Shown in pieces: positions 13,192 through 31,478 of a stretch of DNA of 64,000 nucleotides. Within the stretch, counting starts at the first letter, position 1. Each line of letters starts with the position of its first letter. Origin of the DNA: a virus. Under the pieces are notes generated by a model. It was not told the origin of the DNA. It did no database searches and saw only the letters and a program-made list of their open reading frames with translations. Position numbers and translations under genes: made by a program. The DNA lies in IMG/VR virus record IMGVR_UViG_3300032046_005540, positions 32,001 through 96,000 of that record. The stretch is one strand, 5' to 3'.

Positions 13192-14112
13192 CTATTCCTC
13201 TGGATAAAAATCTTCAATCTTTTGCCCTTTATCTGTAACAACTTCAACATTAGATATATTTTCATATATCTTATAAATTAATTCATCAAAATACATAACA
13301 TTATCTATCAACCCAAACCATAAGGCATCAGTTGCATCATATGTTCTTCCGTCACTTATATTTTCTAAATAATTCATTACTTTTTTATCGTTTGGTTTAC
13401 TTTGATTATATATTTCTGTATATGCTTGAATTAATTTTTTCCCCCGGCAATCAAAAATATATTGAAGAAATTCACGATATAATTTATTTATCTGATTTTG
13501 TAAAATTTCTTTTTCTTCTTCTGTTAACTTACTATGAGAAAAAAACATTGTTTTATTTTTTCCTGACTTGATCAAAATATATTTCACTCCAGACATTGAA
13601 TCAGAAACTGTTTCATCAACTCTCAAAGTAAAAACACCTATAGATCCAGTTTCTCCCGAAGGAGCTACAACTATTTTATTAGCAGTACAAGCAACCCAAT
13701 ATGCTCCTGAATATAAACCCTTTTCAGAATAAACTAAAAGACTTTTATTATATTTTCTCATTAAAACACTTATTTTATGAGTAGTTAATTTAGTCTCTAT
13801 AACATCTCCTCCATTAGACTCCGTCCATGCAATAACTCCAACACAATCTGACTTTTTAAATTCTTTCTCAATTTTATTTGCCCAATCTAAACTAACATCT
13901 CCTTCTAATTTTAAAACAACAATTTTATTTTTTTCTAAAAAAGGATTATTTAATATTAAAGGGTTGGTTGTAGATTGTGTAACAGAAACATTAGAAGTAG
14001 AATTAGCTGTAAATTGACAAATGCCCCAAAAACCTACAAAAGAAACAAAAAATACAAATAATACAATTAAATATTTTTCATTATTCGTTTTCTGTATCTT
14101 CATCTTTGTCAT
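13192..14112 (-). CDS. S49 (SppA-like) peptidase with N-terminal TM
   Basis: ESNGG, SGAYW, TGSIGV, KSGKNK, DGR...A..GLID. Confidence 0.85.
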   Translation of the reverse strand: MTKMKIQKTNNEKYLIVLFVFFVSFVGFWGICQFTANSTSNVSVTQSTTNPLILNNPFLEKNKIVVLKLEGDVSLDWANKIEKEFKKSDCVGVIAWTESNGGDVIETKLTTHKISVLMRKYNKSLLVYSEKGLYSGAYWVACTANKIVVAPSGETGSIGVFTLRVDETVSDSMSGVKYILIKSGKNKTMFFSHSKLTEEEKEILQNQINKLYREFLQYIFDCRGKKLIQAYTEIYNQSKPNDKKVMNYLENISDGRTYDATDALWFGLIDNVMYFDELIYKIYENISNVEVVTDKGQKIEDFYPEE

Positions 14113-14959
14113 CTTCTTCTTCTCCTTCTACTTCTCTTTTTTCAAACAATTTTCGAGCGTCCTCTTTTTTCTTTTTTCTCATTTTTTCGCACTTTTCAGA
14201 AGTAAATTTTGGATCATATATAAATTGAAAACACTCTTTTTCAAGCCATCCATAAATACTATGTATTGGAATAAAATATCCCATATGAGTAATACTATCT
14301 CCCCATCCTATAACATTCATTCTGCTTGGAATTCCTATAAATAAATAGTCTTCTCCTTCTCCTTTTACTTCTTCCTCTTGCTTAATTAAAAATACTCCTC
14401 CCCCACTATTACCGTATATGATCAATCCGTTACTCATCCAATAAGGATGATTTTCCATTTCATCATCTTGAGATGTAATCTCTCCACGAGTGGGAATTGG
14501 AGAATGCCCAAGACTACAACCACACATATACACAGGATCAAAAATATGAATATTCTTTACATCATCTAAATATAATTTAGCAACATTTTTAACTTGTTCG
14601 TTTGATCTTAATTTTACTAAAGCAATATCTCTATCCCTATTATAAGTCATAATATCTGCTTCAATCGCAGTTCTTCCTACATTACGACTCATATTCTGAT
14701 ATTTATAAAATTCTACATTCACTGTTTTTCTTCTTTCTTTATCAATTCTTTTTGAAAGAAGAGGATCCCACTCTTTTTTAACAGATATTGCATCTTCAAT
14801 CACATGCCAGTTTGTTAAAATATATGTTTCATATTCTTCCGATCCCTTTTTTGTAGGCTTAGAATAAACAACAGTTCCACTTCCTCCCGCTTTATCAGTT
14901 TTAACGAGAGCAGAAACATATAAAATTTCTTCATGTTTCTTTTTTATATTATTGTTCAT
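14081..14959 (-). CDS. Trypsin-like (HtrA/S1-type) serine protease
   Basis: GSGTVV, LTNWHV, DIAL, GNSGGG; paralogue of 6499..7146. Confidence 0.88.
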   Translation of the reverse strand: MNNNIKKKHEEILYVSALVKTDKAGGSGTVVYSKPTKKGSEEYETYILTNWHVIEDAISVKKEWDPLLSKRIDKERRKTVNVEFYKYQNMSRNVGRTAIEADIMTYNRDRDIALVKLRSNEQVKNVAKLYLDDVKNIHIFDPVYMCGCSLGHSPIPTRGEITSQDDEMENHPYWMSNGLIIYGNSGGGVFLIKQEEEVKGEGEDYLFIGIPSRMNVIGWGDSITHMGYFIPIHSIYGWLEKECFQFIYDPKFTSEKCEKMRKKKKEDARKLFEKREVEGEEEDDKDEDTENE

Positions 14960-16394: not shown

Positions 16395-19300
16395 CTAAAT
16401 TTGTTTTATCTCTCCCCCTTCTGCTCCATATGGAATACTAAAATCTGGAAAAATCAATTCTTTTGTAGGTTTATATTTTTTTAGTCTATTTGACTCGCCC
16501 CAAGGATCATCTTCAACTGTTCCTTCAATCTCAGCCTGAGCTGGTTCAGAAGGATAACCAGGCCCTTGATCTTCCCTCAAAAGCAATGAAGGGCTGTTAT
16601 AATTTTTTGTTGTAGGTTGACCTTCAAAACTTAATTTTGTTGTAGAACCCATAATTTCTTGAACTTTACCAAGAGGAAAATGTTCATCTTCAGGTGTATA
16701 TGCTTCTAATTCAGTTATAGTAGGATCTAAATCCAATGTAGTAATTAATTCAGGCACATAATACACAAAATTTCCAAGTTTTCCTGAATCTTTTAACCAC
16801 CCAATAAAATTTTTTCCGTAGTATCCCCTTTCAATATCATCAAACTTTTTTCCGGCAGATGGAAGATTAATTGTTTCAAACCACTGCACATGAGAATCCC
16901 AATCTACAGATTTTGCAGGAGGAGTTATATAAACCTTTCCTTCATATACAGCCCACAACCCACCTTCGTTTTCAAAAAATGCTTTCTTTCTTAAACTCAA
17001 CGAAGCTAAATCAATATGAGGATCTAAATTATGTTCTACGATTGAATCATTTTTATCATGTCTTGGAGGATTTGTTCTTCTTAATTTTTTATTATCTGTT
17101 TTATCTTGACTAACCCAATTTTCAGGAATTTCTGAAACATTATCAGTTAAAAATGAGATTTTTCTCATTGCTAACTTCGGTTCCCAAATAACATCTTCAT
17201 CATTATTCAAAATATACTTTATATTTTCTGGGGAAATAACTTCAGTAGAAATATACCAATCAGTCATTCCTTGCCATTCCATATATTTATTACCAAGATC
17301 TAATAATTGTTCTTTCGTTGGATTATCAATTCCTTGAGCTTCTGCTAATCCTTCCCCATACCACATAATTGTATCAGGAGCGTATTGATTTAAAAGTTCT
17401 GCAAAATTTTGTATTGTAGCACTACTTACAATAACATAAATTGAATCTGGAGAACCTTTTCCTCCATCGCTTCTATAAAGTTCCCTAGGTTCATACAAAG
17501 TAAACATTATAAAATGAGGATACCCAGGAATATTTTTAAAAAAAGGCCCTGGCTCTGTTACAAAAGAAGGATCAAGTCCTTTTTGTAAAATACTTTCTAA
17601 ATTCCTTTTTGAAGTTTCATGAGAAAATAATTTTTGTGAGGTTTTTCTCATACTTAATTTAGGAATCAAAACATCCTCTAATTCTTTTGTTTCTTCTTCA
17701 GTAACTTGATCATCTTTTATTATATGTTTAATCTTTCTCAAAATATCTAAATATCTATATCTTTCAATTAACTTAAAAAGAATATTCCCAGGAGTCCAAT
17801 TTTTGCTTAAACCTTTCTCAATTGGTTCTTGCCCGTCATAAAATGCTTTATTTCTTTCCTCATGTATTTGTTCATTTTCTTTTTGTAACTGCTTTAAACC
17901 TTGTTCAATATCTTCTAACTTTTTTTCTACCAACTTTTGAATATCCTCTTTATCTCCTTCATAAGAACTTACCAATTCTTTTAAAATATTATAATCAATT
18001 AAGTCTCTTTTAGTTTTACCTAACTCTTCATCCAGCTTTTTCATAATATTTTCAGCTTTATCTTGTAACAACTTAATTTTGTCACTAACATCCAAGTTTT
18101 CCGGCATTTTCTGTGGTGAAACGATCCACTTATCATTTAGTATATCATAAGCCTCTTCACCCTGTGTCAATACACTTTCTTTGGCTGACAATATATAATA
18201 TGTAAGAGGATGTGAGGTTCCTGGTAATTTTTCTTTATTTAAAGTGTTCCAAAACACTTTTAGCAGTTCTTTTTGCATTTCTTCGTTGTCATCCTTTGCT
18301 TTATTTAGATTGTTCTCTTTATAAATATCCCAATCTACTTCAACATGAATGTCAATATCAGAAGTCTTTAGGTATCTATAAGTTGCAGTTGATCCAGTAT
18401 AATAAAATCCTTTACACCAAAGTTCTGGATTATTTATTCCTACTTCTCTCAAATAATCAATAAACCTTTTTATAATAAGGGTTTTAACATCTTTTTTTAA
18501 TTTTGGAAGGTCTCCAGATAAATCCCACATTTCTGGATCTAAATGTTTTTGAGGGTAATCGAGAATAGATGCTTTTTTATTAAACAAATACTCAGTTTGA
18601 GAAAAAATAGTTTCAAACAATTTTTCAGCTTCTTCCTCCAAATTTGGATTAACCATATTCATAACTATATGAGGTTCTCCTGTTATAAAATGGTCATGTA
18701 TAAAACTAATGATATTATCAATAGATATCATAATATTTTCATCAGTAACTGCAAACTCTAATTCTCGTATATCATCTTCAACTATAATAATACTTTCTTC
18801 GACGTCTTTATCTTCTTCAATACCTTCATACTCTTTCTTCATGTGTTCTAACAGTTTTTGTAAATTCTCAATAAAATCATATTGAATTTCAACTAATAAA
18901 TCATGATCATAAACTCCAGGAGTTTTTAATTGTTGTTTATAAAGCTTGCGAATATTACCTATATTAATAAATGCTTTCTTCCTCAAACTCAACGAAGCTG
19001 TCATTGTTTGTTCAGAGGTAGGATTATCTCCCCAAAGCCAAGGATCTCTATTTATTTTTACTTTTCCAGGAAACTTAATATCAAACCCTTGATCCGGTTG
19101 TCTTTCAAGCCATTTATCTTTTCCTTGAAAATATACTTCTCCTTCAGGATGTTCTCCTTGTTGACCTTGAAGAGGTTCATTCGGAGTTGGTTCAGAAACA
19201 GTAGATGCTGGTTTTTTCATTCTTAAATTTAAACTTTCTATAGGTTCTTTTTCTCCAATACTTTCTATAGTATTATAAATTTCATCAAAATCTCCTTGAA

Positions 19301-22300
19301 ACCAACCAAAGCTATAAGTTAAATGCGCTTGATGAATAATTTGATCAATAGCAATTATTTTTTCAGGCAAAGACTTAGTAAGAACTATTTCCATTTCGTG
19401 TATAAAATCATTCATATCATCTTCATAGCCTTCTCTATACATTTTAGGTAGGTCTTCGGGTATATCAGGGTCATTCCAAATACGAATTTTCTCCTGTTCC
19501 ATACCGTATATCAACTTAGTAATGACGTTATCTACAAATTCGTCTGTTAATAAACCTTTTCTTTCTAATTTATAAAATCGTTTAAGTTCTTGAATAGATA
19601 ATTTGTTAGAATCAGAAATATCTTGTGCTATTTTTTCTTTTTTCTTTTTTCGAGGCCAAGAATGAGGATAATCTAAAGATTTAAGAATTGGATTAGGAAC
19701 CGAAAATAGTTTTCTTAAATAATTAAATGTTTTTGTAATTAAATTTGAAGTTTCTTTTTCTTTTTTCATAGCTAAAGTTGTAATACCTTGAGTATAATCT
19801 AACATTTGAACCATTGCATCTGGAGGAAAATTCAAAGCGTTTTTTAGTTCTTCTAAATGATCATAAAATTCATTATAATCCCCCATTCCATACCAAACTA
19901 TTCTTTTTTCTTCTGGTTTAAAATCTTTACTACCAAACGCATAATCATAAAAATATCCTCTAACTATATTATCAAATACTTCTCCAGCTGAAGGAAGACC
20001 AATTTCTTCAAACCAATTCGGATGTCTTTTTCCAGGACTATAAGTTATATAAACATTTCCTTTATATATTGCCCAAGAACTTTCATTAGAAATAGGTTCG
20101 TCATAAATAAATGTTTCTGCTTTCTTTCTTAAATTTAATGAACTGCTAATTTTTAAATTACTTAATTCATCAAGAAATGTAGACCCTTCAGAGATAGGCC
20201 CCCAAACATCTTTTTTAGCAGGGCCATATTCAAAGTAACCAGAAATAAGATGTTGTGCATAGACATCATACATATGAGATGTATGAATAACAGTATCTAT
20301 AGCAACCATCTTTTCCTGAGGAGTTTTCGCTTTTTCTAAAACTGAAATAAGTCCACGAGTAACCTGAGACCAATCTATACTCGTTAAACTATCCAATGGA
20401 TGTTTTTCTTCCCAATTAGCTAATTCCAAAAGATTTTGTATAAACTTCGAAATAATTTCATCCATTAATTCTTCATCGTAAATGCCTTTAGCTTCCTGCC
20501 TATACAACCTAAATAATTCTTGTTTAGTTGTTAGAGGTGTAGGAAAATCTTCTTCATCATTTTGAGCTGTTTTTCTTAACTGTAAACTACTTAATTTTAT
20601 TTCTTTTTCCCATCCATGAGGTAATCCTTCAATTTGATATTCATGTGTTTTAGCTTCTTCTAGACTTAACAATAAAGTACTTTGGCAAATATCACAATTA
20701 ACCATTATAATTTTTTCATCTCCAAATTCTTGAAAACCTATAAAAGTATATGTAGGAATTTTATTATGAATTTCTTTATATTTATATTCATGACTTTCAA
20801 TACCTGCTTTTTTTCTCAAATTTAAAGAAACTTTTTCAAATGGTATTAACTCTTCAAAATATGGATCTCTAACTGAAATTTCTGTATCAGGTTTTAATTT
20901 AAGGACACTTAATAGTTTTGGTAAATTATCACTAAACTCTTCAAATGTTCCTGTATCTTTATACCATATCAGCCAATTATTACCATACCAAATTCCTCGA
21001 GGAGCAGAATCAAACGCAGTTCCTCCTGTAGGTAATCCTATTTCTTCAAACCAAGTTTCATGATGTTTGTATTCTTTAGTTGTTTTATATATTTCGCCAT
21101 TATAAATTGCCCAAAGGCCATCAGCATTTGCTTTCTTTCTCATACCTAACACTAATGCATTAGGTTCTTTAGATTCTAAAATTCCTAAAATAATTTCTGA
21201 AAATCTTTCAATTTCCCAAGTGCTTAATTCCGGATAATGATTTAAAACATAATTATAAATATTTTCATAAATTTTTGGTAATTCTAAATTTTCTTTAAAA
21301 TGGTTCAATGTTCTATTAATAACTTCTGAATCTAAAGTTGCTTTTTTCTTCATACTTAACTTTGTTCCCATTCCTTCATAAGCTAAAATAGAATTTGCAA
21401 TATATTTTTGTAAATCTAACAAATTATTAATTCTATTAACATTATTTATGATTGTTTGTTTATCCTCTTCAGCAATTTGAGAATTTTCAACTCTATTTAA
21501 AACTATATTTTTTGCTTCTGTTAAATCTAAAGCTTTCCAAACATCTTGTGCAATATCTTCTAAAATAGATATAATAGGACCTTTGTATTTTTTTGGTTTT
21601 CCTCCAAACTTTAAAGATGTTAGCATACCAAAATCTTCTTTCAACTGATCTAAAATAGCAAGGGCAATAAAAACACTTCTATCCGAAAAAACTTTCAAAT
21701 CTTCTTCTAAATGTTTTGTCAAATCAAGTATAAATGGTTTTTCATTAAATAAATTTTCATAAATCTCTTCAGCATTATGTAAATGTTCAAATTGTTTTAC
21801 AAAATCCTTAATAAATATTTCTTCTTCAGGAGTTAAATTTTGTTGAGATTGTTTTCTCATACTTAATTTTTCAACTACTTTTTGTTTTTGAGTCAATTTA
21901 GGAGCTAATTTAAGTTTACCTTGTTCTTGTAAAAAATCAATTAGATTACTCCAAACTTCATCAACTTTTTTTGATTTTTCAAGCGTTAATCCTTCTTCAC
22001 TTGTTCTATCAAGATATTCGTCATAATCCATTTTTAAATGCCAAATTATTGGAAAATCGACATGCATCATATTTATAGTATTATCAATAACAATCATTTT
22101 TGAATTAATATCAAAAGCATTATTTAATTCTTCCCAACGTTGTTTCATTTCTTCAATAACTTGTAATTCTCCTTCTTCTTTTCGAATATTCTCAGGATCT
22201 ATACCTTCATACCATTCAAAATAATCTTCAAAAAAGAACATCAAATCTCGAATAATTCTATCTGTTAAATTATCTAATTTTCTTTCAGTTTGCTGAAACT

Positions 22301-25300
22301 GATTAAATTCTGCCTCAGTTAAAGTTCCTTCATTATATTTTTGTTCTAATTCTCTATATCGTAATTCAAGTTCATAAACTGTTTTTAATTCACTAGGAGT
22401 AATAACTGCTTCTTTTCTCATTACTAAAGTCTTACTCCCAAATGGTTTTTTCAATGTTCTAGGTTTTGTATATTCTTTCCAAACCTCATTAACTAATTGT
22501 TGCCAAAAAGGTTTTTCTTCTTTTTCTTCTATTTTCTCTTTAGGTTCTCCAAGAATAGTAGGAGTAGGAGCAAATGCTATTTCAGGTTCTTCTTCTGTAG
22601 GAATTTTTTCTTCTAACTCTTCTTCTTCAATTGTAAATTTAGGCTCTTCAACAGGAGTTGGAATTTCTTTAAGAACTTCTTTTGGCTCTTCTACTTTAAT
22701 AAGTTCTTTTTTAGGTTCTTCTATTTTTTCTTCAAGTTTTTCAACTGGAATTTCTTTTTTAATTTCTTTTTCTGGCTTTTTTATTTTCAACTCATCTTCT
22801 GCAAACGGAGCAGTAAATCCAGGTTTAAATACATTAACTAAATCGTCAGCAACATTAGTTACTTCTTTAATTTCAATATTATACAATCCTTCTTCAGCTT
22901 TTCCTTTTATAATCCCTTTACCTTTTAGAACACCTCCAGGACTTTTTCGAGTTGCACCAAAATATCTTGTAGTATCAAATTCAACTTCATCTCCAGGTTT
23001 AAATTCTGTTTGAGCAATTCTTTTTAAATTTAAACTGCTAACTTTTAAATTGCTTAATTCCTCAAAAAAAAGATCATTTGACTTTATATCTGTTATCAAA
23101 TACTCTCCATATACACCAAATTCATGAGCTGTGTTTATTACTCTATCTATTGCAATCATTTTCTCTTGAGGAGTTGTTGCTTGTTGTAATATCTGAAGCA
23201 TTTTCTTTTCATCATTTATTATATTGTGTATAATTTGTTCATCCTCTGCTCCCTTTGAAAGTTTCAAATCTTTTTCATCAAATTTAATTAACCCTTCTAT
23301 AGTATTTATAAAATCAACAATAATCTGATCCATTAATTCTTCATCATAAATACCTTTTGCTTCTTGTTTATAAAGTCTTTTTAGTTGTTGTTTAGTCGTT
23401 TGTGATTCAAATTGAGCAGATTTTTCAAACCTAAGTTTTAGTTGTTGGGGGATAATAAATTGCTCTTCTATATTCTTTCTTATAGTTTCTTTTAAACTTT
23501 TTCCATATATTAATTCAAAAGGTTTTTGAAAAGCTTTATATTTACCCTCTTGTTCTTCTTTTGATTTTTCTTTTTTAAATCTTAAATTTTCAATAAATTC
23601 AGGAGATGGAGAAAAAAGATCAGGCTGCAAAAGTTCTTCTTGTTCAATTATAACCTTCTTATGACCAATGCGTTTAGGATTAAGATAATCTACATAAAAC
23701 TCAACATTAGGGCCAAGTTCTAAAGCAACAACCAGAGCATCTAAATTATTATTATACTCCTCAATTGTTCCTGTATTCTTATACCAAAAAACCTGATTAT
23801 TATTTTCAAGACGGCCCCGCGTGATGCGGTCAAAATATACACCACTCATAGGCCATCCCAAATCTTGAAACCATCCAGCATGATCTTCTCGATCATTCCA
23901 GTTGACTACTACTTGTCCTTCATAAATAGCCCATAAAGCACGACCATTACGTTTTGTAGTTTCTTTTCTCATACTTAGTTTATTTGCTACTATACCTCTA
24001 CTAATTACTTCTTTAGCTTGTTCTACTTCTTCTACTGTTACATCTGTTTTCTTACCACTTGCTATATCCCAGATTTCATCTTCAGTGTATTTTTGGAGTA
24101 GAGCGGAAAATGGAACTTTAACCCAAGGAACTCCAATTTCTTCAAGTTTTAAATCTTTTACAAGATTTTCAACTGGTTCTTTATAAAAACTCCTATACCA
24201 TTCTCCCAAAGCTTCTCCTATTTTTTCAGATGCTAATTTTTCAGTAAATGTTCCTAATCCATATTCATCAGTAACATAAACTTTCCACTGCTCAATAAAA
24301 GAAGAAGGAAACCTTCTCATATTATCCAAAATCAAACCATTTACTAAATGTTCACTCACATCTACATTTGAGGCAATATTATATATAAAAAGTCTTATAT
24401 CTCCAAGATTAGTTATTTTGAATTTATTAAGTTTTTCTAAAATATATTCAACACTTTGTGCTTTCTTTCTCATATTTAACTTAGATGCAAATTCTTTCAA
24501 TTCTTTTAATCTTTTTTTAGCTTCATCCCTTACAAAATCTTCTTTATCTTTAACCAATTCAGTTAATGTCTCAAAAAGAGTATTTTTGTTTTTAGCAACT
24601 TCCCAACGAATTCCTGGATCTTCATCTTTTGCTAACTCCACTAAAGTTTCAGGAGGAGTTCTTGGATTACTTGCTAACCTACTTTTTTCAAGCCCAGTTA
24701 AATATTTTTCCGGAGCTTCTACAACTTCTTGACCTTTTAATTGTAAATCTTCAATTACAAACTTTTGAATATCAGAAGAAAGATAAGGTAGGAGTTGTTC
24801 AAGAGTAGTTCCTGCTTTTATTTCTAATACCTCAGCAATCCATTTTTTTGTTTCTGGAAAATCTTCTAATAATAAACCTGTATTATGTTGAATATCATTT
24901 ATATGATCAATTATAGTTATGAGTTGATTAGTATCAGAAGTATTGATAAGTTGAATTAAAGATTCAGTTATATGACCCCAAGGAAGAACCTTGCGTTTCA
25001 TCCATTTGTTCCATTTTCCCTCATTCCATATTCGACTAACTTGTTCAAGAGGCAAATTTTTCAATTCTCCAAGATTCTTTATATTAAATTCTTTTTTCCA
25101 TTTATTCCAATCTAATAAACAAACACTGACTCCTCTACACGCATATACCAACGCTTTATATATACTTTTTGTAATTAAAGGAGCATATTCTTCTTTTACT
25201 TGTTGAACAATCATATCTTTATATTGAGAAGCATAAGGATTTTGTTCTAAATATTGATCCGAAAGGAGACTAACACCATAAAAATCATAAAATAGTTGTT

Positions 25301-26186
25301 TGTCAAGTTGAGAAGTTTTACGCATACTTAAACTTCCAAATATTCCTGGTCCTTGAGGATGTGGTCCTGGAGAAGACTCATACTCCATAGGATTTGAATA
25401 ATTAGGATCTATATTTATTATATTTCCTTGTTCATCTGGGTAATTATAAAAAGGAAGACGTTGTCTTGGTTTTTTAGGACCTTTAGGCCATTCATCTGAT
25501 TTTCCAGGTTCATAAAAATTTTCTTGCATAGTTTCAGGTTCGGCTGTTTTACGAAAGTTTAAATTACTGCTAATTTTTAAATTACTTAATTCATCAAAAA
25601 AAGGATCATATCCAGGTTCTACTCCTTGTATTAAAATTTCTCCATATTTTCCATGACCATGCATAGTATTTATTACTTGATCTATTGCTATCATTTTTTC
25701 TTCAGGAGTTTTTGCTTGTTGTAATATATTAATAAAATTAGTAAAATCTTTAGTATAGGTTTTCATATACTGTGGAGGAGACATTCCTTGGAAAGTTTGT
25801 TCAAAAAATTGTTTATATTTTTCTAAAGTATCTAAAAATTTTGAAATAATCTCATCTTCTAATTCTTCATCATAAATACCTTTTGCTTCTTGAATATATA
25901 ATCTTTTTATTTCTTCTTTTGTAACTTGAGGAAGAGGAAAAGGATATTTCTGTTCAGATTTTTTCCTTAAACTCAAAGAAGCTATTTTTGGAATATAATT
26001 CAAAATAGATTCTTTCATTTCTTCTGGGGAAACAAAAAAAGTCCCTTTTAAATTATCCAAAATATGTTTTTTATAGAAATCATGGTGTGGATGATTTGTA
26101 GGCACTCCCTGTTCATTTAAAATTTCAGAAACGGAATTAGAGTCAGCAAAAAAATATCGAGGTTCACTTTCCAATCTTTTAATCAT
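16395..26186 (-). CDS. Giant 3263-aa multi-module (polyvalent) protein; candidate polyprotein
   Basis: Uninterrupted ORF; about 22 L[SN][ML]RKx[AS]-type linkers; NTase, ART-like, LRV and SH3 modules plus two repeated module families. Confidence 0.9.
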   Translation of the reverse strand: MIKRLESEPRYFFADSNSVSEILNEQGVPTNHPHHDFYKKHILDNLKGTFFVSPEEMKESILNYIPKIASLSLRKKSEQKYPFPLPQVTKEEIKRLYIQEAKGIYDEELEDEIISKFLDTLEKYKQFFEQTFQGMSPPQYMKTYTKDFTNFINILQQAKTPEEKMIAIDQVINTMHGHGKYGEILIQGVEPGYDPFFDELSNLKISSNLNFRKTAEPETMQENFYEPGKSDEWPKGPKKPRQRLPFYNYPDEQGNIINIDPNYSNPMEYESSPGPHPQGPGIFGSLSMRKTSQLDKQLFYDFYGVSLLSDQYLEQNPYASQYKDMIVQQVKEEYAPLITKSIYKALVYACRGVSVCLLDWNKWKKEFNIKNLGELKNLPLEQVSRIWNEGKWNKWMKRKVLPWGHITESLIQLINTSDTNQLITIIDHINDIQHNTGLLLEDFPETKKWIAEVLEIKAGTTLEQLLPYLSSDIQKFVIEDLQLKGQEVVEAPEKYLTGLEKSRLASNPRTPPETLVELAKDEDPGIRWEVAKNKNTLFETLTELVKDKEDFVRDEAKKRLKELKEFASKLNMRKKAQSVEYILEKLNKFKITNLGDIRLFIYNIASNVDVSEHLVNGLILDNMRRFPSSFIEQWKVYVTDEYGLGTFTEKLASEKIGEALGEWYRSFYKEPVENLVKDLKLEEIGVPWVKVPFSALLQKYTEDEIWDIASGKKTDVTVEEVEQAKEVISRGIVANKLSMRKETTKRNGRALWAIYEGQVVVNWNDREDHAGWFQDLGWPMSGVYFDRITRGRLENNNQVFWYKNTGTIEEYNNNLDALVVALELGPNVEFYVDYLNPKRIGHKKVIIEQEELLQPDLFSPSPEFIENLRFKKEKSKEEQEGKYKAFQKPFELIYGKSLKETIRKNIEEQFIIPQQLKLRFEKSAQFESQTTKQQLKRLYKQEAKGIYDEELMDQIIVDFINTIEGLIKFDEKDLKLSKGAEDEQIIHNIINDEKKMLQILQQATTPQEKMIAIDRVINTAHEFGVYGEYLITDIKSNDLFFEELSNLKVSSLNLKRIAQTEFKPGDEVEFDTTRYFGATRKSPGGVLKGKGIIKGKAEEGLYNIEIKEVTNVADDLVNVFKPGFTAPFAEDELKIKKPEKEIKKEIPVEKLEEKIEEPKKELIKVEEPKEVLKEIPTPVEEPKFTIEEEELEEKIPTEEEPEIAFAPTPTILGEPKEKIEEKEEKPFWQQLVNEVWKEYTKPRTLKKPFGSKTLVMRKEAVITPSELKTVYELELRYRELEQKYNEGTLTEAEFNQFQQTERKLDNLTDRIIRDLMFFFEDYFEWYEGIDPENIRKEEGELQVIEEMKQRWEELNNAFDINSKMIVIDNTINMMHVDFPIIWHLKMDYDEYLDRTSEEGLTLEKSKKVDEVWSNLIDFLQEQGKLKLAPKLTQKQKVVEKLSMRKQSQQNLTPEEEIFIKDFVKQFEHLHNAEEIYENLFNEKPFILDLTKHLEEDLKVFSDRSVFIALAILDQLKEDFGMLTSLKFGGKPKKYKGPIISILEDIAQDVWKALDLTEAKNIVLNRVENSQIAEEDKQTIINNVNRINNLLDLQKYIANSILAYEGMGTKLSMKKKATLDSEVINRTLNHFKENLELPKIYENIYNYVLNHYPELSTWEIERFSEIILGILESKEPNALVLGMRKKANADGLWAIYNGEIYKTTKEYKHHETWFEEIGLPTGGTAFDSAPRGIWYGNNWLIWYKDTGTFEEFSDNLPKLLSVLKLKPDTEISVRDPYFEELIPFEKVSLNLRKKAGIESHEYKYKEIHNKIPTYTFIGFQEFGDEKIIMVNCDICQSTLLLSLEEAKTHEYQIEGLPHGWEKEIKLSSLQLRKTAQNDEEDFPTPLTTKQELFRLYRQEAKGIYDEELMDEIISKFIQNLLELANWEEKHPLDSLTSIDWSQVTRGLISVLEKAKTPQEKMVAIDTVIHTSHMYDVYAQHLISGYFEYGPAKKDVWGPISEGSTFLDELSNLKISSSLNLRKKAETFIYDEPISNESSWAIYKGNVYITYSPGKRHPNWFEEIGLPSAGEVFDNIVRGYFYDYAFGSKDFKPEEKRIVWYGMGDYNEFYDHLEELKNALNFPPDAMVQMLDYTQGITTLAMKKEKETSNLITKTFNYLRKLFSVPNPILKSLDYPHSWPRKKKKEKIAQDISDSNKLSIQELKRFYKLERKGLLTDEFVDNVITKLIYGMEQEKIRIWNDPDIPEDLPKMYREGYEDDMNDFIHEMEIVLTKSLPEKIIAIDQIIHQAHLTYSFGWFQGDFDEIYNTIESIGEKEPIESLNLRMKKPASTVSEPTPNEPLQGQQGEHPEGEVYFQGKDKWLERQPDQGFDIKFPGKVKINRDPWLWGDNPTSEQTMTASLSLRKKAFINIGNIRKLYKQQLKTPGVYDHDLLVEIQYDFIENLQKLLEHMKKEYEGIEEDKDVEESIIIVEDDIRELEFAVTDENIMISIDNIISFIHDHFITGEPHIVMNMVNPNLEEEAEKLFETIFSQTEYLFNKKASILDYPQKHLDPEMWDLSGDLPKLKKDVKTLIIKRFIDYLREVGINNPELWCKGFYYTGSTATYRYLKTSDIDIHVEVDWDIYKENNLNKAKDDNEEMQKELLKVFWNTLNKEKLPGTSHPLTYYILSAKESVLTQGEEAYDILNDKWIVSPQKMPENLDVSDKIKLLQDKAENIMKKLDEELGKTKRDLIDYNILKELVSSYEGDKEDIQKLVEKKLEDIEQGLKQLQKENEQIHEERNKAFYDGQEPIEKGLSKNWTPGNILFKLIERYRYLDILRKIKHIIKDDQVTEEETKELEDVLIPKLSMRKTSQKLFSHETSKRNLESILQKGLDPSFVTEPGPFFKNIPGYPHFIMFTLYEPRELYRSDGGKGSPDSIYVIVSSATIQNFAELLNQYAPDTIMWYGEGLAEAQGIDNPTKEQLLDLGNKYMEWQGMTDWYISTEVISPENIKYILNNDEDVIWEPKLAMRKISFLTDNVSEIPENWVSQDKTDNKKLRRTNPPRHDKNDSIVEHNLDPHIDLASLSLRKKAFFENEGGLWAVYEGKVYITPPAKSVDWDSHVQWFETINLPSAGKKFDDIERGYYGKNFIGWLKDSGKLGNFVYYVPELITTLDLDPTITELEAYTPEDEHFPLGKVQEIMGSTTKLSFEGQPTTKNYNSPSLLLREDQGPGYPSEPAQAEIEGTVEDDPWGESNRLKKYKPTKELIFPDFSIPYGAEGGEIKQI

Positions 26187-27353: not shown

Positions 27354-28248
27354 TTGCAAACTCCTCCAATTTATAAATAAGAACATCTCTCAAAAATTCA
27401 TCATAAAAATCAAAGTACCAAATACAAAAACATTCAACTCCAACACTTTTATATTCATTTATTATTCTTTCGTGGTGATCCCACCAAAGTTCTTTCGTAA
27501 TAATAGGATCATGAAAATATCCTCCTAAAACCTCAACAACTTTTTTAGTTTTCTTAAAAGGTTCAACAATAAAATCTGGATTTCTATTTTTATATTTACC
27601 ATTTTTAATAGGAATCCAAAATTTTCCGTTACCTACGTATTTTACATTCTTAGGAACTACCTTCATTACTTCTTGTTCAAGTTTACTAGGACCTATACTA
27701 GCTTTTTCTTTACCTTTTTTCATTTTTCTTAACTCTTCTTCAGAGGGTTTTCTACCTCTTAAAGCTTTACTAATTTTCTCTTTTGTATTATCAAAACAAG
27801 GATGTCCTTTTAAAGCATTACTTATTTTTCTTTTATGTTCTTCAGAAAGAGGCCCTCTTTTTTTACCTTTATTTGATTTACTTATTTTCTGTTTTGTTTC
27901 TTCAGAACGGTATGTTCCATAAAGAGGATTTTTTTCTCCTTTTTTTGATTCCCCTATTTTTCTTTTTGTTTCTTCAGAACGAGGTATTCCTTTTTTAGAT
28001 TCACTAATTCTTTTAACACCTTCACTAATTTCTTTTGTTAAATTTTTATTCCAAGCTTTTCTCCCTTTAAGAGACTCGCTAATAGTTCTTAACTTATATC
28101 CATTTCTTTTAATAATATTTCTAATAGTCACATCACTACAATTCCATTTTTTAGCTAAAACTATACTATTTAATTTCTCTTCAGAAAAATATTCCTTACA
28201 AATTTGTAATTCCTGCTCTTTTGTAAATATTTCCAAAGTTATCACCAA
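27343..28248 (-). mobile_element. Free-standing homing-type endonuclease (HTH + NUMOD3 repeats + PD-(D/E)xK)
   Basis: [18 protein letters not shown] repeats; NPDFI..VVEV.G.YFH. Confidence 0.8.
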
Positions 28249-31200
28249 TTTCTCCGATCAAAAGACCTCTTTCCTCCAACTCTGTCCTTCAGATTTTTAC
28301 CCTTTTTCATATTCCAAAGAGATCCTCCTTTTGTTGGAGGGTGACTTGTTCCTAAAGATATAGGCATTCCCCCTAGACTTTTATGTAATTCTCGAATTAC
28401 TTTACTACTCATATCCTTCCTTAAATTTAGTCTATGTATCAAATTAGCTGACACTACACAAAAATCATCAGAAGTAACTGGGCCACTTGTTGGTGCAGCG
28501 TAATAGACAGTTCCGCCACTTATTATTTTTTGTAAATATTTCAACTCAAGCTTTAATTTTCCAGGCCAATTTTCTAAAGGGCTTTCATCTATCCCATAAC
28601 AAAAAACATTGTTTTGATTCAACTGCTCTAAAAAGGTTCCGAACATCTCACTTTTGTAACTATTAGTAAAGGTTGTTTCAAATGCAGGTAATTTCATTTT
28701 TCTTAATTTATTAACACTATCTATACTGGACCATTGATCATAACAAATTTCTATAACCTGCTTTCCCATCACACTTAAATTTGCAATCAATTTCAATAAA
28801 AATTCCATCACTACATCTGGATCAATCCTTTCCATAACAATTTTACCATCTTCCAACAATTTTACTGTAGGTTCAAATCCTTTTAAACCATCAATCCAAT
28901 ATCTTTCTTGAGGCCTATCTTCTCTATGACCCCAAGCAATAGCATAAGTGTCAGATTTGCTTGCGGGGTCTACTGTTATAATATACAACTGACCCGGGCG
29001 GCCTTTTAACAAAATTGGAGCAGTTGGAATAACCATATTATCTATTTTTTCTGGATTCAAAAATGTTGAAGAAGGTTCTCCAAAATGTGCTCCATATTCC
29101 ATTGCTGCAGAAACTGGGTCTTTTCTAAAATCATCATCAAAACTTTTTCTTTCATATTTAGGATTTGCTTCCCAAGTTGCAAGTTGTAACATTAAATATT
29201 TTTGATTTTTATAAACTTCTTCAGTTTTAGTTTGTTCTTTTCCTCCTGCAGAACAATACAAAGAATAAAACTCTCCAGCTTTTTCAGATGGAGAACTAAT
29301 TGCTATAATTAAACCATCATCTCCAAAATCTTTAACCGAAGGAGTTAAAGCAACCCACATTGCGTGGTCTGTTTGAGGTGCATCTATAAATTCTAAAGTT
29401 CTTTTTCTATAACTTGATCTGGAAAAATGTGCCATTTCATCAAAGGACAAACAATTATGACTTATAAAACCATTTGAAGTAAAATTATGAGTTTTCGGAA
29501 CAGTTACATCATACATTAACTGGCGAGATGAATTTTCTTTTTTAACTATTTTATCCCAAATACCTTTTTCTACAGTAATAACAAACCTTTTTGGTTTTGA
29601 ATGTTTTCTTTTTTGTAATTTTTTTACAAGAAAATCTAATCGTAAAGTATTATATGTATGCAATGTTCCAATTTCTTTAGCATATAACAATATATCATTA
29701 CTATGTACAGAAATTGCATAAATAACATTAGACCTTTTTATAGTTCTTTTCGAAGAAATAATTCCAAAATTTAATAAAAGTATTTGTAACTGATGAGCGA
29801 GTTTTTCTGAAACAGTGTGCATAGAAAGACATCCCCCACTATTTTTATCTCCAGGTTCAACACACCCATCACCATCAAAATATGCTTTTAAAAACTCTTT
29901 CACTATTTCCTTTGGAGACTGTAAAATACACCATGGAATTTCCTTTTTATAACTATTCACATAATCTATTCCAATAAATTCCAAAAATTTTCTTACTTTT
30001 TTACTACAAATAATAATACTAAAACATTTTTTAGTTGCTTTAAATTTAGAAATAGATGTTGACTTTTCATAAATATATTTAACATCAGGAAAACATTTTT
30101 TTATACAATATTTTATATCATTTAAAATTTCTTTATTAGTATTAGAAATGCTAATTTGTGTTTTCTCTGTTACATTTCCTTCTGCAACTAAATAACCTAA
30201 TAATCTAGCAAGTTCCTTTGACATCTTTTTAGGAACTTTTACATCTTTATATCTATTACATTTTCTCCAAAAATTAAAGGTATATAAAGGTGTTTTTGCA
30301 TATCTTTCTTTGTACTGATGTAAAGTTATTTTATGAGTATGTAAATGATCTTCATTTATAAGTTTAAAAAATTTTCCACAAATTTCACATTTTATTTCTT
30401 TTTCTTTATTACCTTTATATTCGTCCCAATAATTATAATTAAATTCAAAATTCTTCAAATTTCCAAAATAATTTTGTCCCTTTTGAATATAAACCCAATC
30501 ACCTTCTTTTAAACTATTTAATTCTTTATATTCAATATTATTTTCCGAAGACATTGTTAATATTTTATGATCTCTCGTTCCAACTAAATCAAATCCAAAT
30601 TTTGTAGTTATTTTTATGCTTTCTTTTTCACCAGAACACATTACATGAGATGTTATAGCCTTCCCAGTATTACCATACAATTGTATTTTTTTATTTAAAA
30701 CAGTTTCCTCATTACACTGAACAACATCTCTTATAGGAATTATTCCCTTCTCAGTAAATATCAAAGTATCTCCAGAAACACATTGAATTGCTTTTCCTCT
30801 TTTAGTTGCTGCAGATGTAGTAACGGATTCAATACAAATTGAACCCCGTAAAAGGTTCTTTTTCATTGAACCTTTTGGTTTCCCTTCATTAAACTTTTTT
30901 ATTTGAGAATTTAAAAACAAATCATAAGGAGAAAACACCCTCAATTCAGTTTCATTATCTTTTTCAAAGTCTATATACTTTTGAAAAAATTCAAGTTTTT
31001 TAATATTATCTTTTATAAGATTAAAGGTTTCTTTTGCTTGTTCTCCATCCGAAGCACAATTAAGAATATGAATTGGATGTCTTTCTCTTATATTATAATA
31101 TTTTTGAGGATTACCTTTACAAACAAGTTTATATGCTTCATATGAAGCAATCCAAGAAACTACAGAACTTTTTGATCCTCTCCTACCTATAACTAAAATT

Positions 31201-31478
31201 AAAACTTCAATTACTTGTTTTGCATTTCTATGTTCTAAATCTAAATCAATATTCCATTCAGTTTTTAGAATATCAATTATTTTCTGTTCTTCTTCAGTTA
31301 TAGGATACTTTTCCCACAATCCATATAACAACTTTAATACTAAACTTTGAAAAGGGAAAGGTCTTTCACCTAACCATTTATGAGAAGTAATAAAAGTTAA
31401 AGCATCTACTGGTTCAATCGGTGCGGTTAGTAAAACTCTTTCTTCGTATTTTTTATCTACTAAATCTTTGAAGGTCAT
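28242..31478 (-). CDS. terL: Terminase large subunit with LAGLIDADG intein
   Basis: PFPFQ, Walker A-like GRRGSKS, Walker B LSFDE, ISSP coupling motif, nuclease VDPA...SDD. Confidence 0.88.
29454..30782 (-). mobile_element. Intein (443 aa) with LAGLIDADG endonuclease and internal Zn-finger insert
   Basis: N-terminal CVSGDTL; C-terminal YDVTV..HNF..NGFISHN followed by C(+1); LLGYLVAEG and [10 protein letters not shown]; CEICG..H..H insert. Confidence 0.93.

Follow-up and report, generated by a model that had tools for sequence, protein, structure and literature searches.

The stretch of DNA analyzed here, the window, comprises 64,000 nucleotides (bases 32001-96000) of the viral record IMGVR_UViG_3300032046_005540 from IMG/VR, which has a length of 168,267 bp and is by estimate ~90% complete. 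The window is AT-rich (~29% GC) and all of its open reading frames (ORFs) of at least 150 amino acids (aa) are encoded on the minus strand. One of them encodes a giant protein of 3263 aa, in which ~20 modules are strung together and separated by a recurring junction motif. Cutting this protein at the junction motifs and comparing the pieces with each other revealed at least eight kinds of modules, among them the repeat families A and B. Module A, the subject of this work, has a size of ~120-140 aa and constitutes an undescribed, autonomously folding domain family that is deployed as a cassette. It was pointed out in an original prediction made from the DNA letters, which described an unknown helical module present in about seven copies. 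All seven stretches named there were recovered at their positions, on the minus strand and within the single ORF at 16395-26186. The giant ORF and its A copies are the following (positions are those of the window unless the genome is named):

16395..26186, minus strand: giant ORF, 3263 aa, ~20 modules with the junction L-[SN]-[LM]-R-K-[KT]-A between them
25554..25967, minus strand: module A1 (A1-type), aa 74-211, an entire junction-to-junction segment, AlphaFold2 predicted local distance difference test (pLDDT) 84
23025..23444, minus strand: module A2 (A1-type), aa ~915-1054, C-terminal part of segment seg06, behind a family B module
20130..20576, minus strand: module A3 (A1-type), aa 1871-2019, an entire segment
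21858..22418, minus strand: module A6 (A6-type), aa 1257-1443 (seg08), with the extended motif IDNxINxxHxDxPxxxH
19224..19679, minus strand: module A4 (A4-type), aa 2170-2321 (seg14)
18567..18983, minus strand: module A5 (A5-type), aa 2402-2540 (N-terminus of seg16), followed by a degenerate junction, LFNKKAS, and a nucleotidyltransferase-like module
24852..24989, minus strand: doubtful seventh copy, aa ~400-445 of seg04, IIDHINDIQH, of which only the motif-bearing helix pair is A-like

In a self-BLAST of the junction-delimited segments with A1 as reference, A2 and A3 were matched with E-values of 2.5e-36 and 5e-32, A4 and A5 with 2e-12 and 4e-11, and A6 with 1e-3. A profile built from the copies recovers each of the six with independent E-values of 1e-40 to 1e-59, which are partly circular as the same copies built the profile; independent support for the family comes from the same profile picking up 120 outside clusters. 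Six matches to the pattern [IV]D..[IV]...H were counted in the giant protein, compared to 0.044 expected occurrences and a maximum of two in 2000 shuffles. From the roughly seven predicted copies, six are statistically solid and the seventh is doubtful. This seventh copy (QLITIIDHINDIQH, aa ~400-445) was undetected by the A profile within the giant protein and reaches a p-value of 0.01 in an hhalign comparison with the seven-copy alignment. The family of seg04, compared by hhalign with the alignment of 71 A domains, gave a probability of 49% and a p-value of 1.8e-4 over 42 columns, which comprise the motif-bearing helix pair only. Segment seg04 is a separate conserved module type with a family of its own, running on into LRV/HEAT-like repeats, and its A-like part would be a doubtful, marginal member of family A. 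An eighth copy, of A1-type, is located outside the window at genome positions 150533-150913, within a junction-bearing ORF of 521 aa (genome 150476-152038). It shows 63% identity to A1 in the multi-copy alignment and 67% by genome search. At the DNA level, the four A1-type copies (A1, A2, A3 and the eighth) retain 67-80% similarity. Variable loops sit between the conserved helices of the A copies.

The AlphaFold2 model of A1, calculated from the seven-copy alignment, is confident (pLDDT 84, predicted template modeling score 0.80) and shows an up-down four-helix bundle followed by a C-terminal helix, with helices at residues 17-28, 34-58, 66-84, 88-100 and 122-134. Values of pLDDT below 50 are confined to the junction residues at both ends. 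Conservation was counted over 71 domain instances, using clusters at <=50% identity. His103 is kept in 70 of these and Asp96 in 66, the other five having Asn and none Arg. Tyr24 is found in 60/66 instances with five further Phe, Gly30 in 58/65 and Ala94 in 57/71, while position 100 is occupied by Asn (43), His (12) or Gln (7). The resulting signature of module A is [LI]xx[LF]Y-x4-[K]-G-xx-D ... [ED]K[MIL][IL]A[IL]D-xx-[IL]-[NH]-xx-H. The Asp-x6-His pair, which the original prediction had singled out, is the most conserved feature family-wide and persists in cellular homologues at ~20% identity. The A6 subtype possesses further invariant polar residues in an alignment of eight sequences, i.e., R, E, D, N, N, H, D-x-P and H. 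A helical wheel places Asp96, residue 100 and His103 in what appears to be one stripe on the flank of helix 4, beside the core stripe of Met92/Ile95/Ile99/Met102, and Tyr24 presumably on the core-facing side of helix 1. The conservation of Asp and His is what a functional site would show, and these residues together with Tyr24 may form a ligand or catalytic site, a prospect that we put somewhat short of even.

Module A is absent from current annotation. The copies gave best Pfam E-values of 0.018-0.024 to unrelated domains of unknown function, each matched by a single copy, and for the stand-alone and cellular homologues no match was found in Pfam, NCBIfam, PHROGs v4 and PADLOC. The original prediction had proposed an HMM search from the copies and a structural comparison, and both were carried out. 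The former gave the 120 outside clusters at E<=1e-3. In the latter, Foldseek returned nothing at E<=0.001 for the A1 and cellular models against the PDB and for the A1 model against BFVD. Fold libraries gave generic helical bundles only. PDB sequence profiles returned noise for the phage family and zinc-ribbon matches only for the cellular family, and in the ESM Atlas A1 had no usable match, with matches of the cellular homologue reaching at most 0.83. The predicted repeated, unannotated helical module is hence confirmed by self-BLAST, profile, AlphaFold model and empty database searches; no known repeat or fold matched, so that a structural repeat in which Asp and His are buried and non-functional did not turn up. 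The whole giant protein gave only sub-threshold matches to NTP_transf_2 and LRV in Pfam, and a tblastn search with its aa 1-2019 against 50,697 deposited phage genomes gave no match.

The 120 clusters at E<=1e-3, 24 of which are at E<=1e-10, come from an exhaustive profile search that covered 1.84 billion cluster representatives. The family members are of three kinds, namely polyproteins of related phages, stand-alone proteins of 120-175 aa and a cellular family of ~210 aa. Polyproteins are exemplified by P0003 (2830 aa), filed under a Cloacimonadota metagenome-assembled genome (MAG), and by P0004 and P0006, neighboring ORFs on the 107-kb viral contig of L012. The ~210-aa family carries a C4 zinc ribbon as an insert between helices 2 and 3, and its genes lie on chromosomal contigs (up to 226 kb) of MAGs from Dehalococcoidia, Anaerolineae, Chloroflexia and Brocadiaceae. 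It encompasses at least 362 clusters at 90% identity, named as hypothetical or incidentally as zinc-ribbon proteins, and its distribution is patchy (3/301 Chloroflexota genomes sampled). The equivalents of Tyr, Gly, Asp and His are invariant in this family and a His at +4 is present in at least 90%, resulting in Asp-x3-His-x2-His. The AlphaFold2 model of a cellular homologue (pLDDT 89.6) shows the helix order of A1 with the inserted ribbon, and profile-profile comparison of the phage and cellular families by hhalign gave a probability of 99% (E 9e-18). As chromosomal cellular homologues exist, module A is not phage-specific. The cellular family has no conserved neighbors; three close Chloroflexi loci share general synteny only. 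Fused cellular forms were found twice only, with URO-D and with an FtsX-like domain, and are possibly gene-call artefacts. The cellular loci L007, L008, L009, L019 and L020 belong to Chloroflexota MAGs, and the cellular-family proteins P0087 and P0113 carry an added Rho_N/SAP-like tail. Furthermore, P0026, P0028, P0035, P0050 and P0112 from GC-rich sources are A-like with a conserved, strongly basic C-terminal tail, RRPEVRVRAHRRR. Scans of viral contigs with the stand-alone proteins P0045 and P0016 found no relatives, and a further search for longer proteins with the phage profile gave nothing new.

A maximum-likelihood tree of 35 domains resolved an A6-type group (support 97/96), an A4-type group (97/95), an A5-type group (100/99) and a large A1-type group (88/81). 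Each of the four contains one copy from this phage, several in the case of the A1-type, together with orthologues from other phages, which shows that the copy set is old and has been retained. Expansion within the lineage is confined to the A1-type with four copies in this genome. The original prediction had regarded the copies as a diversified paralogue set, as expected of an effector; this did not hold, given four old, supported subfamilies with orthologues elsewhere. The A copies look like conserved, subfunctionalized core modules and not like an arms-race expansion.

The giant protein is punctuated by ~19 copies of L-[SN]-[LM]-R-K-[KT]-[AS], and 74 sites in 14 proteins give the junction consensus [SKR]-L-[NS]-[ML]-R-K-[KT]-A-Q. 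In this genome the strict motif recurs (at least three times) in three proteins only, the giant protein, a 1195-aa protein and the 521-aa protein; another frame contains it once, apparently by chance. Separately encoded relatives have the motif at the extreme N- or C-terminus, at most a few residues away from it. The modules are acidic throughout, and basic linkers separate them. P0003, P0004 and P0006 contain the same kinds of modules in changed order, and in L012 the polyprotein is divided over two ORFs. P0057 from a more distant clade uses another junction dialect, [AS]LSYREM.KKA, at eight sites including the N-terminus. It contains an Acb1 phosphodiesterase domain of the 2H phosphoesterase kind (PF23474, E 4.7e-11) directed against the cyclic oligonucleotide-based antiphage signaling system (anti-CBASS) between A-type and seg04-type modules, and GNAT domains are present in P0017 and P0023. 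Across clades, A modules are the most recurrent part of the polyproteins: most large members have at least two of them, whereas the set of enzyme modules changes. A pairing of A with a fixed neighbor such as a chaperone or immunity module was considered and rejected, as the neighbors differ between phages. Further modules of the giant protein and the relevant neighboring genes are:

17649-18566, minus strand: nucleotidyltransferase-like module, GS...DIDIH, sub-threshold PF01909 match, after A5 across LFNKKAS
16626-16991, 19767-20129, 20817-21150 and 23700-23969, minus strand: four copies of the family B module, WAIYxGxxxxxxxxxHxxWFxxxGxPxxGxxFDxxxRG
14081..14959, minus strand: trypsin-like serine peptidase (Pfam Trypsin_2, E 1e-12), synteny retained in L013, candidate junction-processing enzyme
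13192..14112, minus strand: peptidase S49, 'head maturation protease' in PHROGs, second candidate processing enzyme
28242-31478, minus strand: large terminase (TerL) with an intein-like insert

The same nucleotidyltransferase stands as a module of its own in P0003 and P0006, is the first module of P0076 (3973 aa) and is fused to an A6-type module in P0071. Family B recurs in P0003, P0004, P0005 and P0006. The 1195-aa junction-bearing protein (genome 15325-18909) adjoins the portal gene and contains LRV/HEAT-like repeats and one stretch that we take to resemble sigma-70 region 2. It also has three near-identical pre-junction segments of ~50 aa (VPYAAFLNKYSPDEIWDIVSGKK...ANRLSMRK), which are found in the giant protein as well (aa ~690-739).

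Upstream of the giant ORF on the coding strand lie a 230-aa ORF and the large terminase, and downstream an SbcD-like exonuclease, the trypsin-like peptidase and the S49 peptidase. The order TerL, small ORF, polyprotein and exonuclease is retained in the related viral contigs L012 and L013. In L013 the trypsin-like peptidase comes next; L012 stops within the exonuclease gene. The terminase insert is intein-like or homing-endonuclease-like, and its best matches in phage databases are inteins in Staphylococcus phage polymerases. The head genes are located outside the window, at genome 5-22 kb. PHROGs assigned a major head protein (genome 5254-6270), a portal (genome 18999-22205) and a 1444-aa protein with a head-maturation-protease domain (genome 6836-11182), i.e., a protease-scaffold protein; the Pfam models for capsid and portal missed these genes. 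An inserted region of the portal matches unrelated PHROGs. Sites resembling the junction are present in the protease-scaffold protein (EKKKAV, VRKTAKKSA, KRKTAA and IRKKAS), which is lysine-rich so that these are raw counts lacking a chance baseline, and a GFRKEAP site is found at the N-terminus of the major head protein, MVKKNASAYPPGFRKEAP. The idea that R-K-x-A is the site of the maturation protease would fit these occurrences. The trypsin-like enzyme encoded beside the giant gene is an equally good candidate for the junction protease.

The explanation that we favor, with a confidence close to even and slightly below it for the reading as a whole, is that A modules are cassettes of a protease-processed cargo polyprotein, each acting through a Tyr/Asp/His groove. 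The giant protein would be made as a single chain and then cleaved at the disordered junctions by a phage protease, either the prohead protease-scaffold protein of the head module or one of the downstream trypsin-like and S49 peptidases. Cutting would yield acidic A proteins of ~16-23 kDa beside companion modules that are enzyme- or regulator-like, such as the nucleotidyltransferase of the giant protein and the sigma-like stretch of the 1195-aa protein. The pieces may be carried inside the capsid and reach the host together with the DNA. It is likely that the cassettes are freed by proteolysis as virion cargo: the module bounds and the changes in module order between phages fit with cassettes released by a phage protease, and packaging is suggested only by the gene position after TerL, which is kept in two related contigs. 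Each A protein would then act alone, using a polar groove of Asp96, Asn/His100 and His103 on the flank of helix 4 and Tyr24 of helix 1 to bind a metal, a nucleotide or a partner protein, and the four old subfamilies would probably address different targets.

Several observations weigh against this explanation. The helical wheel puts Tyr, Asp and His at helix-helix boundaries, where they could constitute a purely structural hydrogen-bond network. Cleavage and packaging are deduced from the genes alone, and the RK[KT]A sites of the scaffold lie in a lysine-rich protein, where a raw count has no chance baseline. No ligand, partner or catalytic precedent was found for module A, and two divergent cellular loci have only the gene itself in common, their neighbors giving no functional clue. 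That the subfamilies are old and conserved is equally compatible with an effector and with a role in the structural core.

Such a structural role would make module A an organizational virion cargo, i.e., a component or organizer of an internal head body or a packing adaptor for the enzyme modules, made in fixed ratios from a polyprotein, with Tyr/Asp/His only stabilizing the bundle. We consider this unlikely. The high recurrence of A across clades with varying enzyme modules, the age and conservation of the subfamilies, as for assembly components, and the acidic modules with basic linkers between them speak for it. Module order is however not conserved, near-invariant polar residues are unusual in a mere packing module, and stand-alone chromosomal homologues with an inserted zinc ribbon occur outside any phage context in Chloroflexota and Brocadiaceae, which argues for a capsid-independent biochemical role of module A. 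That the giant protein stays uncleaved, as a beads-on-a-string polyvalent protein in which A is a spacer or adaptor and the basic linkers contact DNA, appears very unlikely, even though polyvalent proteins can be packaged unprocessed, as in case of the N4 virion RNA polymerase (PMC5512222). The motif at the extreme termini of separately encoded relatives, the polyprotein split over two ORFs in L012, the switch of junction dialect between clades and the shuffled module order fit better with independent units bearing a recognition site than with one integrated protein.

The anti-defence or host-binding effector of the original prediction, taken here as a diversifying set in which each copy is tuned to another host defence or receptor variant, is in our view clearly unlikely. 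It retains some support in the anti-defence-type enzymes of relatives, such as Acb1 in P0057, in the growth of the A1-type to four copies that are 67-80% alike in DNA, and in the variable loops between conserved helices. The main subtypes are however older than the divergence of these phages and were kept as orthologues, neither PADLOC nor PHROGs gave an anti-defence match, and cellular homologues exist. The analysis yielded no evidence of catalysis or of host binding by module A. It is most improbable that module A is a degenerate HEPN-like bundle or nucleotidyltransferase partner, with Asp replacing the Arg of Rx4-6H, that binds nucleotide or RNA together with the co-encoded minimal nucleotidyltransferase. 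HEPN domains are likewise up-down four-helix bundles with a conserved His ending a core helix, and they often take inserts between helices 2 and 3, including zinc ribbons, and are occasionally adjacent to minimal nucleotidyltransferases (Anantharaman et al., 2013; PMC3710099). The position of the cellular ribbon and the x6 spacing before the His agree with this, as do A5 directly preceding the nucleotidyltransferase here and its A6-type fusion in P0071. In contrast, the defining Arg position is Asp or Asn in 71/71 instances, the nucleotidyltransferase occurs in P0003 and P0006 with no preceding A module, structural scores are not above noise, and hhalign of the A family against 29 PF05168 HEPN sequences (a control alignment of 29 loci, L034 being left out) gave a probability of <1%. 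HEPN membership found no support: the bundle fold fits, the Arg of Rx4-6H is never present and the PF05168 profile comparison is negative.

A bolder reading is that module A represents a new catalytic or cofactor-binding fold, in which a His-centered Asp-x3-[Asn/His]-x2-His with Tyr on a b562-like bundle serves to bind metal, tetrapyrrole or nucleotide. Effectors with this fold, injected by phages, would then form a class of their own, whose cellular counterparts would be the zinc-ribbon proteins of Chloroflexota and anammox bacteria; we hold this to be improbable. Under this reading, the A6 subtype with its R, E, D, N, N, H, D and H invariant in eight sequences would be the best enzyme candidate.

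Annotation pipelines leave many giant proteins of large uncultured phages blank, and here one such protein is built largely from one unrecognized domain family with a sharp four-residue signature. Profile, boundaries and signature provide a handle for annotating more than 100 protein clusters, and the confidently modeled modules of ~16 kDa are targets for structure determination and binding assays. Should the modules turn out to be injected, A would make up the largest share of the cargo in a delivery system based on polyproteins; its further cargo would be the nucleotidyltransferase and the sigma-like module in this phage, and Acb1 and GNAT domains in relatives.

Among known systems, the closest concept is the class of polyvalent proteins found in phages and conjugative elements, which contain many unrelated effector-type domains and presumably reach the host together with the DNA, in many cases after proteolysis (Iyer, Burroughs, Anand, de Souza and Aravind, 2017; PMC5512222). 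Similarly, the giant protein is a very large phage protein with many distinct domains encoded beside virion genes. In contrast to that class, Pfam finds none of its hallmark domains (zincin-like metallopeptidase (MPTase), ArdC-N, ParB/DdrB, methylases, SNF2, lysozyme and others), and most of the protein is made up of repeated paralogous modules from the unknown families A, B and seg04-type. A single conserved junction motif, for which polyvalent proteins have no described equivalent, lies between the modules. Inner-body proteins of the phiKZ type include paralogous families. IPI-III and Alt of T4 and the inner-body/ejection proteins of phiKZ and SPN3US are small proteins and enzymes that are housed in the capsid, undergo maturation by the prohead protease at a short consensus site and are ejected into the host (PMC7411985, PMC10052503). 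The proposed cargo would be comparable to these as capsid cargo matured by a protease. Their sequences and folds are unrelated to module A, and they are encoded separately with cleavage sites of the L/I-x-E or S/A/G-x-E types, whereas here ~20 modules are fused in one chain with the basic junction L-S-M-R-K-K-A. In terms of fold, the up-down four-helix bundle of the cytochrome b562 type is among the closest known systems to module A.

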